53,596 nt of DNA from a virus (Duplodnaviria; Caudoviricetes). How positions within the stretch are numbered: position 1 is the stretch's first letter; the number at the start of each line of letters is the position of its first letter. The stretch is from positions 1 through 53,596 of the IMG/VR virus record IMGVR_UViG_3300017700_000477. The stretch is one strand, 5' to 3'. This document shows, piece by piece, positions 22,810-53,461 of the stretch. A program made the position numbers and the translations under genes. The notes below the pieces were generated by a model. That model saw only the letters and a program-made list of their open reading frames with translations, did no database searches and was not told where the DNA came from.

Positions 22810-22886
22810 CGCAGGATAGAGCAGTCAGTTAGCTCGCTAGGTTCATACCCTGGAGGTCGTGGGTTAAAATCCCACTCCTGCTACCA
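22810..22886 (+). tRNA. tRNA-Met(CAT), initiator (fMet) type, with encoded CCA
   Basis: Cloverleaf folded by hand: C1:U72 mismatch, A11-U24, anticodon CAT at 22844-22846, 77 nt; extended -10 TGCGATAAT upstream. Confidence 0.9.
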
Positions 22887-48562: not shown

Positions 48563-49815
48563 TGGCCGCCGCTCCTCTCTCGGACGCCCTGTGCCAGGAG
48601 GCGGTCGACGCCGTCGTCCAGCACGGCTCGATCTCGGCAGCCGCACGCGCGCTCGACATCTCCCGCGGCACGTTCGACGCCCGCCAGCGTGAGGCTCGCC
48701 GACGGGGCTTCGTCTCGACCCTGCCGCCCCGTCTGGTTCTGAAGGGCCAGTCCATCCTGCGCGATCGGGACGGCAACGAGACCGCGCGCTGGGACAAGAC
48801 CAAGCAGGAGGGCAGGGAGGTCGAGGACACTTTCCAGCTTCCCGACCCCAAGAAGGTCGTCAAGACCGCCACGCTCTACGACGCGCAGGGCAAGGTCACG
48901 TCGCAGTGGATCTCCGAGAAGCCGGAGGACGCCGAGCGCGAGGCCCTGTGGCAGGCGTTCGCGGACAAGCTGGCGGCAGACCTGCCGGCCCGCAAGCCCG
49001 TCACACGTGCCAAGGCAGCCTCCAATGCTGACCTCCTGGCCGTCTATCCGGTCGGCGACCATCACACGGGCATGATGGCCTGGGCCAAGGAGAGCGGCAA
49101 GGATTGGGACCTCAAGATCGCAGAGGGGACCCTGCAGCAGGCGGCTGCGCACCTGATCTCGCAGTGTCCGCCCAGCGACACCTGCCTGATCCCGTTCCTG
49201 GGCGACTTCTTCCACTACGACAGCTATTCGAGCGTCACGCCGGCCAGCAAGCACCTCGTCGACTCGGACGGGCGCATGCCCAAGATGGTCGACGTGGGCT
49301 GGATGCTGATCGAGTACGTGATCATGGCCGCGCTCGAGCGGCACAAGCACGTCAGGGTCATTTTCGAGAAGGGCAACCACGACGAGGCCACCGCAGCGGT
49401 CACGACCATGTTCCTCAAGCGGCTCTATCGCAACGAGCCGCGCGTCTCGGTCGATGACTCGCCGGCCTTCTGGCACTACTTCGAGTTCGGCAAGTGCCTG
49501 CTCGGGACCAACCACGGCGACAAGACCAAGTTCGAGAAGCAGCTTTCGGTCATGGCGCACGACCAGTCGGAAGCCTGGGGCCGGACGACCTACCGGATGA
49601 TGATGACCGGGCACGTCCACCACGAGCACCGCAAGGAATACCCAGGCGGCTGGGTCGAGAGCTTCGGTGTCCTGCCGCCTGGCGACGCCTACGCCCACCG
49701 CGGCGGCTACCGCAGCATCCAGCAGATGCACGCCCTGGTCTTCCACCGGGACGGCTACCTGGCCAGCCGGCACATGTTCTATCCGGGCATGTTCGATCAG
49801 AAGGTGGCGGCATGA
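48562..49815 (+). CDS. HTH-fused calcineurin-like metallophosphoesterase
   Basis: HGSISAAARAL HTH; GDHH, GDFFH, GNHD, HGD, GHVHH. Confidence 0.88.
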   Translation: MAAAPLSDALCQEAVDAVVQHGSISAAARALDISRGTFDARQREARRRGFVSTLPPRLVLKGQSILRDRDGNETARWDKTKQEGREVEDTFQLPDPKKVVKTATLYDAQGKVTSQWISEKPEDAEREALWQAFADKLAADLPARKPVTRAKAASNADLLAVYPVGDHHTGMMAWAKESGKDWDLKIAEGTLQQAAAHLISQCPPSDTCLIPFLGDFFHYDSYSSVTPASKHLVDSDGRMPKMVDVGWMLIEYVIMAALERHKHVRVIFEKGNHDEATAAVTTMFLKRLYRNEPRVSVDDSPAFWHYFEFGKCLLGTNHGDKTKFEKQLSVMAHDQSEAWGRTTYRMMMTGHVHHEHRKEYPGGWVESFGVLPPGDAYAHRGGYRSIQQMHALVFHRDGYLASRHMFYPGMFDQKVAA

Positions 49816-50939
49816 CCTACGTCCCATGGTGGCCAACGGCCTCGCTCAGTGGTGACTCGGCCAATAGCGGCACGGTCAACCCTTTGGATTATGGCGCCAA
49901 GTTCGACGGCGTGACCAACGACACAGCAGCAATCCAGTCCGCTATCAACGAGGCAAAAGGGCGGGGCCACAAAGGGCGCGCGCTCGGCAAGGTCGTCCTC
50001 CCGCCGGGTGTGGCGCTTATCACTGGCCTACTTCTCGATCGCTCCGTCGTCATCGAGGGCGCAGGCAACCACGCCTCGTTTCTAAAGACCGTGGCGGGCA
50101 CCACCGGCGCGGCGCTCACGATTGCAGTCGCCCACGACGGCAACAACTACGTGGCCGAGGGCGACCCGCAGGCGCACGTCTGCCTGTCCAATTTCACGCT
50201 CATGTCGAGCAAGTCCGACGTTCCAGGCCAGACCAACGGTCACGGCCTGCAGATATCGACGGCAGACGTCAACCAGGCCACGACCATCGTGTTGCTGGAC
50301 CGCATCAATATCGCGGGCTTCCCGGCGCACGGCATCAAGTCGGAAGGCTTCGCCGGCACCGTCCAAGCTCGCGACTGCCTGTTCCACAACAACCGCCTCA
50401 ACGGCGCGGATATCGCGTTCACCAACGACTGGTGGTTCACGAATTGTGCATTTGCCGTGAATGGCCAGGATGGCGTGAGCCTCTATGGCTGCAGCCAGAT
50501 GATCTTCACGACCTGCAACATGTACTCGTCGACCCGCTACAACGTGAACCTGTTCAACACCGTGGCCACGACGGGCAACGCCTGCAACAACCGCTTCTTC
50601 GGCTGTTCCTTCGACCGCGCTGGCCAGCACGGCGTCAACTACGACGTCCGGCAAAACCTCGATACCGAGTTCCATGGCTGCTACTGGCAGCTCAACAGCC
50701 TGCTCGGCTACCAGAATTATTATGATTTCTGCGTGCGCGACAACGTACTCGGCGGCTGCAAGATCATAGGCGGCTGGTTCCGAACGCCGACCGATGCGGT
50801 CTATAATATCGGCATCGCGACGCCCACGAACCAGGTCGTTGACCTGACCAGCGTGGCCTTCGCCGGCGGCCTAAACGCCGCGACCACTTGCAATGCACCG
50901 CAGCGCCTGACCGTCGAAAACAGGGCGGCCGTAGCATGA
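49812..50939 (+). CDS. Pectate-lyase-3-like right-handed beta-helix protein (depolymerase-like)
   Basis: VNPLDYGAKFDGVTNDTAAIQSAI, V.LPPG, IEGAG; Asn/Cys/Phe ladder repeats. Confidence 0.85.
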   Translation: MTYVPWWPTASLSGDSANSGTVNPLDYGAKFDGVTNDTAAIQSAINEAKGRGHKGRALGKVVLPPGVALITGLLLDRSVVIEGAGNHASFLKTVAGTTGAALTIAVAHDGNNYVAEGDPQAHVCLSNFTLMSSKSDVPGQTNGHGLQISTADVNQATTIVLLDRINIAGFPAHGIKSEGFAGTVQARDCLFHNNRLNGADIAFTNDWWFTNCAFAVNGQDGVSLYGCSQMIFTTCNMYSSTRYNVNLFNTVATTGNACNNRFFGCSFDRAGQHGVNYDVRQNLDTEFHGCYWQLNSLLGYQNYYDFCVRDNVLGGCKIIGGWFRTPTDAVYNIGIATPTNQVVDLTSVAFAGGLNAATTCNAPQRLTVENRAAVA

Positions 50940-51289: not shown

Positions 51290-51459
51290 CCGGCGCTCGC
51301 TACCCGCGGTTCGTCATGGAGTCCGACCGGTGCGTGCTGAAACTGTGGGACCCCGACGGCAAGCAGGACATCGTCGTGTGCGAGGTGTCGGCCAACCTGG
51401 CGCTGGTGCTGATCCGGGATCTCGCGGCGATCGTCGGGCGGATGGTGGCTAGGGGTTAG
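51286..51459 (+). CDS. Small hypothetical protein (57 aa)
   Basis: Hand-translated; SD GGAGG; ATGA coupling. Confidence 0.6.
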   Translation: MTGARYPRFVMESDRCVLKLWDPDGKQDIVVCEVSANLALVLIRDLAAIVGRMVARG

Positions 51460-51461
51460 GG

Positions 51462-51682
51462 CTGCGCGCAATTTGCGCGCGCTTCACGGTTCGTTCCGGT
51501 GTTTTCACAGGTTATCCACCGCTCAAAATCGTTATTAATCAATGGACTAGCGTAAGACTTAGCCCTTGACATGGCAGGGGTCACAGGTTCAATCCCTGTC
51601 GCGCCCACCAAGATAAATCAACGTTTTATGCCACTTCGGCCCCTTCTGTGAGGGGGTCGATTTGCGCGCGATTTGCGCGCAA
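51462..51682. other. attP: core 51564-51610 matching the 3' half of a tRNA-Val(GAC), arm-type repeats TTGCGCGC and IHF-like sites
   Basis: CC-TTGACAT-GGCAG-GGGTC-ACAGG-TTCAATC-CCTGT-CGCGCCC-ACCA; IHF consensus AATCAACGTTTTA at 51616; repeats at about 51462, 51472, 51661, 51672. Confidence 0.9.
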
Positions 51683-52207
51683 TCCATGCTGAGATACGAC
51701 AGCTTGCGCTAGTCTTATTAGTACGCCCGCGCCCCAATCCGACATGGCGGTGTTTGCTGCAACGCAGACTATGCGAACGTTTCCCATGCGATAAGATTTG
51801 CCAGAGTCGATGCGATCGACCGATGGCGCCCAAGGATTCCGAGGGCAGCCCGACGAGTTTATGAAGGACAGCGGCACACCGGAGATGGCGCACTTTCCTT
51901 GGCTATCCCTGAGCAGTTTCGCTAATTGTTTTTCGGTGAGGCGGACTTGCCTGCGGTCATGACCGCACTTGGCAACGCGCTGCAATCTAGCAAGAAGCGA
52001 TCGCGCAAATTTTGCAGAAGCCATCTTGCGGAAATGGCTTTCATCCGTGTCCGATTCTTCAATCATGGAAAAGCGCAGCGCCGCGGCCCTAGCTTCCGCA
52101 ACTCGCCTGTCGTTCGTTTTCATGGACTGTCGGAATGAACGCCCACTGACGGCCCAGGTGGCGTACCACCTATCGCTTGCGGCTATCTTTGCGAGTTTTA
52201 CTTTCAT
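51626..52207 (-). CDS. Chimeric protein: integrase-type arm-binding N-terminus plus HNH-like (DRID-type) C-terminus
   Basis: RWYATW.VSGRSFRQSMKT.DRR.AE; CAISG...PSVDRIDS.KSY..GNVRIVC..AN. Confidence 0.75.
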   Translation of the reverse strand: MKVKLAKIAASDRWYATWAVSGRSFRQSMKTNDRRVAEARAAALRFSMIEESDTDESHFRKMASAKFARSLLARLQRVAKCGHDRRQVRLTEKQLAKLLRDSQGKCAISGVPLSFINSSGCPRNPWAPSVDRIDSGKSYRMGNVRIVCVAANTAMSDWGAGVLIRLAQAVVSQHGLRANRAQIDPLTEGAEVA

Positions 52208-53291
52208 TTCTCTTTGATACCACAACGCGCGCAACTTTACTAGTTTTGCGCGCGGCCGTCGGGCGAGCGACCGCTTCTGCTGCCTCTCTCAAGTCTTCAA
52301 CCATGTGCTTGCCGTAGACCGATTGCAGGGTCCGCATGCTGGTCGCGGTCATGCCGGACACGATCCAGGGAGAGGCTACGCGCAGTGCCCATGTGACGGC
52401 GGTGTGCTTCAGGATATGTGGCGTGGCATGCGGCAGGCCGGCGGCTTTTGCGACCAGCCGGAAGGCGCGCCGGATACTCTTGAGCGGCTGGTCCTTAAAC
52501 TTCTCTGGCCGACTCATGGGCTGGATGACGTACGCGCTACTGCTGGTCTGGCGCTGTCGGCGCAGAAGCGCAACGACGTGCGCCGGCAGCGCGGTCAGAG
52601 CTCGCCGCTTCCGGTTGTGATCGACACCCGGCAGGCGGAAATCGACTGTCCCCGCCTTGAGGTCGACGCGGTCCCACGTGAGTTGCAGAATCGCCCCGCG
52701 CCTGGCGCCGGTCGCTATGGCCAGATGAATGAACAGCGCGACGTGCCTATGGTCTTCCGTCTCCTCGGCCGCGCGCGTCATGGCGTCGACCTGGGGCCGC
52801 GTCAGAAACTCGGGGCGGGGTGGCGGCTCCCGATCGCTGGGAACGAATGGCGCGGTGGCCAGGTCGCCGAACCGCACGGCCTGCCGCAGGGCAGCGCGCA
52901 AGACGGTGCGGTGCAGGTTGATGGTCCCGATCGCCATGCCGTCGGCGATGCACTTTGCCTTGTACCGCTCCATGCTCCTGGCATTGACACTGTCGACCGC
53001 GGCCAGACCGAAGAACTTGTTGAGGTGCCTGGTCCTGATGCCGATCGCCTCCGCGCTGGCGAGTTTGTGGGCGTGGCGAGTCCAGTAATTTTCGAGAACA
53101 GTGGCAATCGAGATCTGGTCCGGCTTTGCCTCGGCCGGCCGGTCTAGCTCGAGGATGAAGTTTGCGAGGAATTTTTCAGCCGGGCCAACGTCTTTAAAAC
53201 CCGTTGACGCACGGCGTGATCTTCTCCGCTCAGTCCAGACGACATAGTAGCGCCCGTTGTCGGGGTGCTTCCAGAGTTTATGATTGGGCAT
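52170..53291 (-). CDS. int: Tyrosine integrase
   Basis: N-terminal arm-binding domain; TGAR..IL.LTWDRVD, PHILKHT, VYGKH; next to attP. Confidence 0.93.
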   Translation of the reverse strand: MPNHKLWKHPDNGRYYVVWTERRRSRRASTGFKDVGPAEKFLANFILELDRPAEAKPDQISIATVLENYWTRHAHKLASAEAIGIRTRHLNKFFGLAAVDSVNARSMERYKAKCIADGMAIGTINLHRTVLRAALRQAVRFGDLATAPFVPSDREPPPRPEFLTRPQVDAMTRAAEETEDHRHVALFIHLAIATGARRGAILQLTWDRVDLKAGTVDFRLPGVDHNRKRRALTALPAHVVALLRRQRQTSSSAYVIQPMSRPEKFKDQPLKSIRRAFRLVAKAAGLPHATPHILKHTAVTWALRVASPWIVSGMTATSMRTLQSVYGKHMVEDLREAAEAVARPTAARKTSKVARVVVSKRNESKTRKDSRKR

Positions 53292-53461
53292 CGGATGCTT
53301 GCCTTATAGGCGGTAATGTCGGACATGGGATAGAAGATACGGCGACGCAGTTGGGCGAAAGCCAGCCGACCCGCTATGCGCTCTGCCTTCACGACGGATG
53401 GGGAGACTCGCAGTTCGGTTGCCGCCTCCCGTTCGGTCAGCCAGGGGTCGCGCTCGATCAT
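53144..53461 (-). CDS. xis: Excisionase-like HTH protein overlapping the int start
   Basis: LTEREAA.ELRVS...V...R..GRL......RRIFY..SDI..Y. Confidence 0.8.
   Translation of the reverse strand: MIERDPWLTEREAATELRVSPSVVKAERIAGRLAFAQLRRRIFYPMSDITAYKASIRCPIINSGSTPTTGATMSSGLSGEDHAVRQRVLKTLARLKNSSQTSSSS

Follow-up and report, generated by a model that had tools for sequence, protein, structure and literature searches.

A putative PacI-type nuclease gene with an integrase-like arm-binding domain in the attP region of a tailed phage

Why would a phage carry a gene for a nuclease-like protein inside its own attachment site, among the arm repeats, and what could the product do there? The question is raised by a short gene (P0001) located between the tyrosine integrase gene (int) and the core of attP in the window, by which we mean the whole stretch of 53,596 nucleotides of viral DNA that was analysed. 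A sequence-only reading of this DNA had suggested three functions for the gene: homing into attP sites that do not carry it, attack on competing phages, or modulation of integration and excision.

The gene within the attachment site

P0001 occupies an open reading frame at 51626..52234 on the minus strand, and translation from the ATG at 52207 gives a protein of 193 amino acids. The same methionine start is found in its three close homologues, and the homologues P0003-P0005 are 64-66% identical to it. The gene is read in the same direction as int and is placed in the attP arm nearer to int, with int on one side and the first arm-site doublet on the other, and it shares positions 52170-52207 with the int gene. 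The GC content is 0.50-0.585 over 51500-52299, as against 0.64-0.72 in int and 0.68-0.715 on the left. Reading frame, coordinates and GC values accord with the initial description of a low-GC gene of 193 codons between int and the attP core with a 38-nt int overlap, and the proposal that its 3' end runs over arm-like sites into an IHF site also held, the stop codon being inside the IHF-like match. The features of the region are as follows.

51463..51480, no strand: inverted arm-type motif pair GCGCGCAAATTGCGCGC, located beyond the core as seen from int, with identical copies in the related loci L082 and L083
~51563..51612, plus strand: attP core, the 3' part of a tRNA from anticodon loop to CCA, conserved in L082 and L083
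51616..51628, plus strand: IHF-consensus-like site AATCAACGTTTTA, overlapping the nuclease stop codon
51626..52207, minus strand: putative two-domain nuclease gene P0001, 193 aa, with a 38-nt overlap with the int 3' end
51660..51682, no strand: arm-type direct doublet, ATTTGCGCGC twice in an 11-bp register, inside the last nuclease codons (LRANRAQI)
51671..52045, minus strand: predicted PacI-type His-Me (beta-beta-alpha-metal) nuclease domain, codons 55-179, with D131, R132, Y139, N143, R145 and N152
52002..52011, minus strand: single arm-like site AATTTGCGCG, within the nuclease gene
52055..52207, minus strand: putative arm-type DNA-binding domain, codons 1-51, paralogue of the integrase N-terminus
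52170..53291, minus strand: tyrosine integrase P0002, 373 aa (Pfam Phage_integrase, 1e-10)
52226..52254, no strand: inverted arm-type pair CGCGCGCAA, 11 nt, TTGCGCGCG, within the 3' tail of int and 19-47 nt ahead of the nuclease ATG
53147..53461, minus strand: HTH_17 gene (excisionase-type helix-turn-helix), upstream of int, a separate candidate directionality factor

The arm repeats are strongly concentrated around the gene. The motif TTGCGCGC has 12 exact matches in the window, seven of which fall in 51464-52253 (binomial P 1.3e-10), at 51464/51473, 51662/51673, 52002, 52227 and 52246, and all four window matches of ATTTGCGCG lie in the same interval; these positions agree with the roughly seven TTGCGCG(C)-type repeats reported earlier around the gene. 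The pair at 51463..51480 belongs to a 30-nt repeat with a second copy at 51651-51680, at a spacing of 200 bp, and the doublet at 51660..51682 is also present at the int 3' end of L082 and L083, which are nuclease-free. It is possible that the inverted pair at 52226..52254 is an operator or the remnant of an insertion target; the hairpin that it could form is not unusual for its composition (z -0.84). The IHF-like motif WATCAANNNNTTR has two matches only in the window, one of them at 51616-51628.

The fragment at ~51563-51612 reads, from its sequence, as the 3' part of a tRNA-Val with anticodon GAC, and positions 51564-51611 match att-type sequences of other phages; no whole tRNA was found at the core region. 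A promoter and terminator scan gave nothing above expectation on the strand of the nuclease gene. An Rfam search of 51300-52400 returned a single sub-threshold row, HPnc0260 (30 bits; gathering score 59), and we regard it as a chance match.

A protein of two domains

The N-terminus of the protein was said to parallel that of the phage's integrase. The pairwise similarity is weak, with 13 of 35 residues identical between nuclease residues 4-38 and integrase residues 5-39 (BLASTP E 0.07), and the profiles agree strongly (hhalign 98.6%, E 1.1e-15), whereas the control comparison of the nuclease C-domain with the integrase N-terminus gave 0.2%. The AlphaFold2 (AF2) model of the N-domain consists of three strands (4-7, 14-20 and 23-28) and a helix (34-49), and the first ~50 residues of the integrase model show the same order of three strands and a helix, so that the fold expected of an integrase-homologous arm-binding or AP2 domain is indeed predicted. 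Structural comparison gave Z 5.2 with HPI Int, 4.7-4.8 with lambda Int and 5.5 with AP2, values not separated from those of PH-like matches (Z 5-5.7); the N-terminus of the phage's own integrase reached 4.5-4.9 against the same lambda and HPI arm domains, with comparable PH-like matches. The nuclease-family HMM matches the N-termini of 22 of the 59 relatives of the window's integrase, and among 43 members of the nuclease family Pfam recognised DUF6538 in eight, Arm-DNA-bind_2 in two and AP2 in one. Judged by sequence comparison, residues 1-51 are homologous to the arm-type DNA-binding domain of the protein's own integrase clade.

The C-terminal part had been described as beta-beta-alpha-Me-like with DR in place of the usual DH. 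The AF2 model (pLDDT 88.4) agrees, with strands at 128-132 and 144-148, a helix at 149-158 and the DR at residues 131-132, and the best structural match is PacI (3m7k_A, Z 8.1, rmsd 3.7, 115 residues aligned). The family profile likewise matches PacI (3ldy_A, E 1.1e-4), aligning D131, R132, Y139, N143, R145 and N152 with PacI D92, R93, Y100, N104, R106 and N113. These residues are nearly invariant: among 154 family proteins D131, N143 and N152 are found in all 154, Y139 in 153, R145 in 152 and R132 in 149. The DR therefore stands, but not the HNH reading attached to it, since the site is of the PacI type, with Tyr for His, throughout the family. A decayed HNH was rejected because DR is the PacI active-site signature and R132 is so widely kept, and a canonical HNH or HNH_3 homing endonuclease because R132 occupies the His position and a Pfam HNH match is absent, both for P0001 (E up to 1) and for the 43 members (E up to 0.01). 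An excisionase or recombination directionality factor was also discarded: there is no HTH family match, the fold is different and a separate HTH_17 gene is located upstream of int.

By profile and predicted fold, then, the C-domain is a PacI-type His-Me nuclease domain, which would cleave DNA. Neither of the two Cys4 zinc sites of PacI is retained in the 154 proteins, which conserve C106 (154/154) and C148 (145/154) only, CxxS/T and CxxV/A replacing CxxC, and no conserved counterpart of PacI His42 was found in the family-profile alignment. Since these elements are missing, catalysis by P0001 could differ from that of PacI or be lost.

The homodimer model scored 0.80, against 0.00 for the best of three controls, which may be an echo of the solved PacI dimer; of the proteins with solved structures, 20 of 30 one-chain pairs and 1 of 23 single chains came up to this mark. 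At least 96% of contacts were common to the runs, with a partner pLDDT of at least 81, and the C-terminal helix is the predicted dimer interface.

Database searches of other kinds gave little. A single-sequence PDB search with P0001 found nothing below E 0.5, and Foldseek against the PDB had no match at E <=0.001, its meaningful rows being PacI, other HNH nucleases and AP2. The nuclease part is unmatched by Pfam in P0001 and the 43 members, for none of which NCBIfam holds a family, and the PHROG matches are labelled 'endonuclease', 'endonuclease VII' (1.1e-12) and 'HNH endonuclease'.

Distribution of the gene and its partner integrases

Is this protein peculiar to one phage? The sequence-only reading had called it a chimera, and its build of two modules is borne out, but it is no one-off: it belongs to a very large phage family, with 5,968 representatives. 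The viral contig scan with P0001 alone found no relative, and the relatives came from an alignment-based scan, of which we studied the best 80 of 396 matches, not a random sample. Among the 68 unique viral family ORFs from these best 80 matches, 32 have a tyrosine integrase directly upstream on the same strand, as counted with an integrase profile that covered the core and catalytic part only and excluded nuclease-family ORFs as seeds. All ten integrase neighbours sampled matched Pfam Phage_integrase (E 2e-5 or better), nine of them above the gathering cut-off. In genome contigs int lies directly upstream in 5 of 18 cases. Overall, the homologues show a strong association with integrases and att sites. 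The genome contig scan contained no close relative (best 36-50% identity), and the host and integrated form of the phage were not seen there. At one locus (L142) the order is int, nuclease, 66 bp and a convergent tRNA-Pro. The gap between int and the nuclease is -4 to +3 (start-stop overlaps) in many loci, which would also fit a stable operon partner.

The N-termini of nuclease and integrase tend to match as pairs. The protein's own integrase ranks first for the nuclease N-terminus in 15 of 24 non-redundant pairs, in 12 of the 24 no N-terminus of any other nuclease or integrase matches as well, and none of 20,000 permutations reached the observed mean. The window's own pair is among the weaker ones (score 42, rank 2 of 32), and about 9 of 32 pairs (L010, L016, L021, L023, L034, L048, L051, L052 and L053) have no cognate N-terminal similarity, with scores of 15-31 and ranks of 1-18, the first rank of L010 being on a 10-residue alignment only. 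A tree of the C-domain (89 columns) implies 12 label changes on the best topology, of which well-supported branches force only 2; it is too poorly resolved for counting gains or independent captures.

Among close relatives the gene is optional, as comparison of the loci indicates. Both forms of the int-attP module, with and without the gene, were found in related phages (the L013 clade and L082/L083). Of 59 loci whose integrase is related to that of the window, none has the nuclease domain; the two closest integrase relatives (58% and 52% identity) are nuclease-free, and in both of them the arm doublet, the inverted pair and the tRNA-Val core are conserved. Within the clade of the L013 integrase, the nuclease is present in 3 of 9 loci at >=95% integrase identity (six are without it) and in 0 of 10, 0 of 6 and 2 of 38 in the lower identity bins. 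Loci L160 and L166 have 644 bp and 92 bp, respectively, between flanks that are 92% and 86% identical. This pattern is compatible with gain by homing and with simple loss alike.

Possible roles and known systems

Which of the three functions is then the most plausible? Homing fits best, because the gene is present in some related int-attP modules and missing from others, and we favour, with moderate confidence, the view that the gene is optional and mobile and that its product is an arm-site-directed, homing-type endonuclease. P0001 would probably be a dimeric DNA endonuclease of two modules. Module 1 (residues 1-51), as a copy of the integrase arm-binding domain, should recognise the same GCGCGCAAAT arm repeats, which flank the tRNA-Val core. 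In module 2 (~55-179), by analogy with PacI, D131 and N152 would hold the metal, Y139 would replace the usual His and R132 would assist. The protein would bind to arm sites where a related attP or prophage junction has no nuclease gene and cut near them, and recombinational repair would copy the gene into the int-attP interval. Arm-site binding, cleavage, homing and self-protection are properties that we infer for P0001; its own arm doublet at 51660-51682 is intact in the phage, which, in view of the self-cutting to be expected, counts against homing. More tentatively, and with rather less confidence than we place in homing itself, we suggest that phages have a widespread class of homing endonucleases that time and again take up the arm-binding domain of the neighbouring integrase, or go on being converted to it, so that attP arm repeats become the homing address.

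Could the protein serve to exclude competitors instead? Its integrase-type arm-binding domain would find the attP of rival phages or satellites sharing the integrase type and the tRNA-Val site, and the nuclease would destroy that attP and protect the prophage site, with no gene conversion. The architecture and arm-site logic are identical to those of homing, the catalytic residues are conserved, and in prophages the gene lies at the edge next to the tRNA, a position that could allow its expression together with int. We nevertheless consider exclusion unlikely: where integrase modules are nearly identical, the gene is cleanly there or missing between flanks that are conserved, which marks a mobile gene and not a defence island, and the resident attL and attR have these arm sites too, so that some further protection from self-damage would be required. 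Somewhat less likely again is an accessory or regulatory recombination factor, which would share or contest arm sites with Int, bias integration versus excision or repress the int operon, its nuclease-like domain mainly dimerising and distorting DNA. A gene inside the attP arm with a paralogue of the Int arm-binding domain, a pair of inverted arm sites a short way ahead of its start and a predicted dimer suited to paired sites would all agree with such a role, and passages of a study of Cluster J mycobacteriophages (PMC3706429) propose that arm-type-like inverted sites at a gene start are autoregulatory. Yet recombination does without the gene, which is absent beside 96-98% identical integrases and in the two closest relatives, whose arm sites are the same. 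If the protein were not catalytic, the near-invariance of its PacI-type active-site residues would be difficult to account for; there is a separate excisionase-type gene (HTH_17), and C-domain relatives annotated 'endonuclease' occur in lytic phages that have no integrase.

The PHROG labels and those relatives that adjoin terminase genes in T7-like Ralstonia phages might suggest a generic HNH-type endonuclease with a housekeeping function in packaging or recombination, for which the adjacency to int and the N-terminal likeness would be functionally meaningless. This we regard as highly improbable, since both the adjacency in 32 of 68 ORFs from the best 80 of 396 matches and the permutation result are far beyond chance, and the gene is optional among close relatives.

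To our knowledge, the arms of att sites have so far been viewed only as scaffolds for integrase, Xis and IHF. If the homing-type reading is true, they would be attacked as well by a selfish or competitive nuclease, a new player in the evolution of integration modules and in the rivalry between elements sharing a tRNA site. If the capture reading is also true, such nucleases would be retargetable by nature and parasites of integration modules, with a possible influence on the competition for tRNA integration sites, and the cognate matching would represent natural retargeting of nucleases by domain capture, possibly useful for engineering. The literature searched yielded no published description of an integrase-adjacent PacI-like nuclease.

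How does P0001 compare with known systems? Passages of PMC5714182 and PMC4081073 describe PacI as having no catalytic His and using Tyr instead, and PMC4081073 describes it as a homodimer; an excerpt of PMC13139853 names Arg93, Tyr100 and His42 as catalytic. P0001 has in common with PacI (3ldy/3m7k) the His-less set of Asp-Arg, a loop Tyr and an Asn metal ligand, and it may, as modelled, also be a homodimer, but it is without both Cys4 zinc sites and a conserved His42 counterpart, and it has an N-terminal integrase-type DNA-binding domain. PacI is a stand-alone restriction enzyme, whereas P0001 is encoded in attP beside an integrase. In the part of PMC5714182 that treats it, His-Me group 20 (PacI) is small, with 78 viral (giant viruses), 4 bacterial, 0 archaeal and 6 eukaryotic sequences, as against 5,968 representatives in the P0001 family; if our assignment is true, a His-less site described there for a small, mostly giant-virus group would be common to thousands of phage proteins without a Pfam model.

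The F-CphI/T4 endonuclease VII-motif family, which according to passages of PMC6083498 comprises free-standing phage nucleases with a C-terminal Endo VII-like catalytic core, is characterised there by DHDH and CX2-4C/CX2C zinc ligands. R145 and N152 of P0001 correspond to R54 and N62 of Endo VII, but membership was rejected, since P0001 has DRID, a conserved Tyr and one Cys per pair. The arm-binding domains of integrases (lambda Int 2wcc/1z1b; HPI Int 3jtz) resemble its N-domain in their three-stranded sheet and helix, but in P0001 the domain is joined to a nuclease in place of a recombinase core. Homing endonucleases that combine an AP2/integrase DNA-binding domain with HNH (Pfam AP2 with HNH_3) were reportedly described by Magnani et al. 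in 2004. They too join an integrase/AP2-fold domain to a His-Me nuclease, and one of the 43 members is the one recognised by Pfam AP2; the nuclease of P0001, however, is PacI-type and not an HNH_3 with catalytic His, its DNA-binding domain matches the neighbouring integrase and its gene lies inside attP. Lastly, I-TevI and the T4 seg and mob genes are modular, free-standing phage homing endonucleases. As with these, the P0001 gene is optional between conserved flanks and joins a nuclease to a tethered DNA-binding module, but its presumed target is the arm repeats of a recombination site, and its binding module has apparently been taken from the adjacent gene.

Layout of the integration module

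At the right end of this 53,596-bp record, which is rated a complete virus, the minus strand carries an HTH_17 gene, the tyrosine integrase gene (int) and the gene for the 193-aa protein, which shares 38 nt with the 3' end of int and has a GC content of 0.50-0.585, against 0.64-0.72 on both sides. The HTH_17 product is likely to be a directionality factor. To the left of the nuclease gene lies a tRNA-Val fragment that resembles att-like tRNA pieces of other phages, and ARAGORN found no whole tRNA at this position. Phage genes go on beyond it, including one for a beta-helix tail protein, and since the fragment thus has phage genes on both sides we read it as the core of an intact attP, with the nuclease gene between int and core.

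Features around attP
49812-50936, plus strand: pectate-lyase-like right-handed beta-helix protein (Pect-lyase_RHGA_epim, 1e-13)
51463-51480: inverted pair of arm-type motifs
~51563-51612, plus strand: tRNA fragment, anticodon loop (GAC, Val) to CCA, read from sequence
51616-51628: IHF-consensus match between core and doublet, overlapping the nuclease stop codon
51626-52207, minus strand: 193-aa nuclease gene (ORF call)
51660-51682: direct doublet of arm-type motifs, 11-bp register
52002-52011: single arm-type site
52170-53291, minus strand: tyrosine integrase gene, int (ORF call, Pfam)
52226-52254: inverted pair of arm-type motifs
53147-53461, minus strand: HTH_17 (excisionase-type helix-turn-helix) gene, 105 aa, just upstream of int and overlapping its start

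The beta-helix gene stands to the left of attP at a distance of about 0.5 kb, with two small ORFs between, and probably encodes a tail spike or depolymerase. The phage also has a complete tRNA-Met (CAT) gene at 22810-22886 (plus strand).

The sequence-only reading had described clustered repeats here, and the counts agree: of the 12 copies of TTGCGCGC in the window, seven lie within 51464-52253 (P 1.3e-10). The clusters at 51463-51480 and 51660-51682 each belong to one copy of a 30-nt repeat whose two copies are 200 bp apart and have the core between them, and the IHF-consensus match is one of only two in the window. The last nuclease codons (LRANRAQI) are written over the 51660-51682 doublet; the gene has its place between int and this doublet, and the phage's own arm doublet is intact. 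Because the repeats are common to the integrase clade, including members whose loci have no nuclease gene, they are best read as putative arm-type sites of that clade.

A PacI-type nuclease with an integrase-like N-terminus

The protein combines a PacI-type nuclease with a second module, paralogous to the arm-binding domain of the integrase, and its gene lies in the int-proximal attP arm. Its AF2 model is confident (pLDDT 88.4). No Pfam model was found for residues ~55-179, in this protein or the family members searched; in PHROGs this region matches endonuclease (8e-19) and endonuclease VII (1e-12), a profile from 43 full-length relatives reaches PacI at E 1.1e-4, and PacI ranks top in the structural search (Z 8.1, rmsd 3.7, 115 residues aligned). 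The second-best structural match is the C-terminal domain of yeast Tcd (ct6A dehydratase; PDB 9hmp/9hmo; model residues 60-171, Z 6.9 and 5.8); its authors, too, point out a resemblance to PacI, with the catalytic residues absent.

The DR noticed earlier in place of the usual DH is present, but it marks a conserved type of active site and not decay, since D131, R132, Y139, N143, R145 and N152 align with D92, R93, Y100, N104, R106 and N113 of PacI and each is conserved in 149-154 of 154 family proteins. PacI is described as a His-Me nuclease without the catalytic histidine, for which a loop tyrosine substitutes (PMC5714182, PMC4081073), and Arg93, Tyr100 and His42 are named as its catalytic residues (PMC13139853). 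His42, however, has no conserved partner in the present family, which also retains only one cysteine of each of the CxxC pairs of PacI. A homodimer modelled through the C-terminal helix scored 0.80 against 0.00 for the best control, a mark attained by 20 of 30 solved homodimers and 1 of 23 solved single chains, although resemblance to the PacI dimer may account for this result; the runs had at least 96% of contacts in common and pLDDT of at least 81.

Residues 1-51 are modelled as three strands and a helix, as are the first 50 residues of the integrase with the register shifted by one residue. Taken as a pair the two N-termini are only weakly alike (13/35 identical, E 0.07), but their profiles align at 98.6% in hhalign (E 1.1e-15, 46 columns), against 0.2% for the control of nuclease C-domain and integrase N-terminus. 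The two are thus clearly homologous at the profile level, which bears out the parallel drawn by the sequence-only reading. The N-terminal part of the family HMM matches 22 of 59 related integrases at their N-termini, and Pfam assigned DUF6538 to eight, Arm-DNA-bind_2 to two and AP2 to one of 43 family members. Structure searches returned, at Z 4.5-5.5, AP2 as well as the arm domains of the HPI and lambda integrases, but this fold search alone is indecisive because unrelated PH-like entries score equally.

When every nuclease N-terminal region was compared with the first 90 residues of all integrases, the cognate integrase took first place in 15 of 32 pairs and one of the top three places in 20; after integrases more than 50% identical were collapsed it was first in 15 of 24, and the observed mean was not equalled in any of 20,000 permutations. 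Cognate pairs typically had 40-60% identity over 26-67 residues, and in 12 of 24 cases no other nuclease or integrase N-terminus matched as well as that of the own integrase; in about 9 of the 32 pairs cognate similarity was absent. That cognate pairs are closer than non-cognate ones would not be expected from one ancient duplication, and it implies repeated capture or ongoing conversion of the N-domain. The C-domain tree is too weak for counting capture events.

Genomic company and optional presence

The nuclease belongs to a large family that keeps integrase company. A representative search gave 5,968 proteins at E <=0.001 and 1,090 at <=1e-10, with only three close homologues (64-66% identity). 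Profile searching of viral contigs gave 396 relatives; retaining only the best 80 loci left a biased sample with 68 unique ORFs (window included), of which 32 lie directly downstream of a same-strand tyrosine integrase (gaps -250 to +389). In five the locus has an integrase at another position, three times just downstream of the nuclease gene, and for 31 the profile scan found none in the locus, except that in two the contig edge holds a truncated integrase-like ORF, picked up by the first, less clean profile alone. All ten sampled neighbours matched Pfam Phage_integrase at E <=2e-5, nine above the gathering cut-off, with differing arm-domain families. On bacterial genome contigs int was directly upstream in 5 of 18; one of these loci (L142) runs int, nuclease, 66 bp, convergent tRNA-Pro. 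In three proviral loci, L006, L031 and L036, a convergent tRNA (Thr, Leu, Thr) comes 42-59 bp after the nuclease gene at the provirus edge, and the ~4.7 kb upstream yielded no integrase. Lytic phages, for example PaMx28, crAss-like phages and T7-like Ralstonia phages, also have relatives of the C-domain, there joined to different N-termini.

Some loci are arranged differently. In L017, L030 and L057, a well-supported clade of the C-domain tree, the order is reversed, with the nuclease gene ~145 bp upstream of a same-strand integrase. Tandem nuclease regions occur within single proteins, namely the 426-aa ORF of L153:16-1296 (matches at residues 125-270 and 294-409) and the representatives P0008, P0009, P0011 and P0012, each with two stretches. 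The 5'-open 453-aa ORF of L143:2-1363, in which residues 271-448 cover the complete family region, may represent either a larger fusion or read-through from a gene upstream.

The nuclease gene is present in some and absent from other near-identical integration modules. Among loci with L013-type integrases and at least 700 bp downstream, it was found in 3 of 9 at >=95% identity, 0 of 10 at 85-95%, 0 of 6 at 70-85% and 2 of 38 at 60-70%. Between flanks 92% and 86% identical, L160 with the gene has 644 bp and L166 without it 92 bp; two copies of GTATTAGACAG form an arm-like doublet directly after int in L166, and in L160 the 3' end of the nuclease gene overlies such a doublet, as in the window. 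In other loci region-confined repeats start at or just past the nuclease 3' end, and in L002, L054 and L073 one copy also stands just upstream of its start, again as in the window. Of the 59 loci whose integrase is related to the one in the window, none has the nuclease domain. In the closest two, L083 (58% identity) and L082 (52%), the 3' end of int bears a direct GCGCGCAAA(T) doublet; the next elements are a tRNA-Val fragment 30-75 bp past the doublet and an inverted pair GCGCGCAAATTGCGCG(C) 70-75 bp past the fragment. Beyond the far arm sites the DNA (L082:5260-5560, L083:5250-5470) encodes unrelated small ORFs, so the genes bordering attP on the far side differ among relatives.

Function and known systems

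What could such a protein do in attP? We somewhat favour a homing endonuclease: a dimer would dock on paired arm sites through the borrowed integrase-type domain, cut close to the arm sites of relatives that lack the gene, and be copied into them by repair, much like a free-standing homing endonuclease. A nuclease that excludes rival phages without conversion seems to us unlikely. More doubtful still is a modulator of recombination or expression, against which stand the optional presence of the gene, its conserved catalytic residue set and the existence of a separate HTH_17 gene, while a generic nuclease is the least probable of all.

Fusions of AP2/integrase-fold domains to HNH nucleases are already known, and so is the PacI active site. 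Our literature search, run over article texts, found no published PacI-type nuclease in attP that mirrors its neighbour's arm-binding domain. In Cluster J mycobacteriophages, arm-like sites have been noted at gene starts (PMC3706429).
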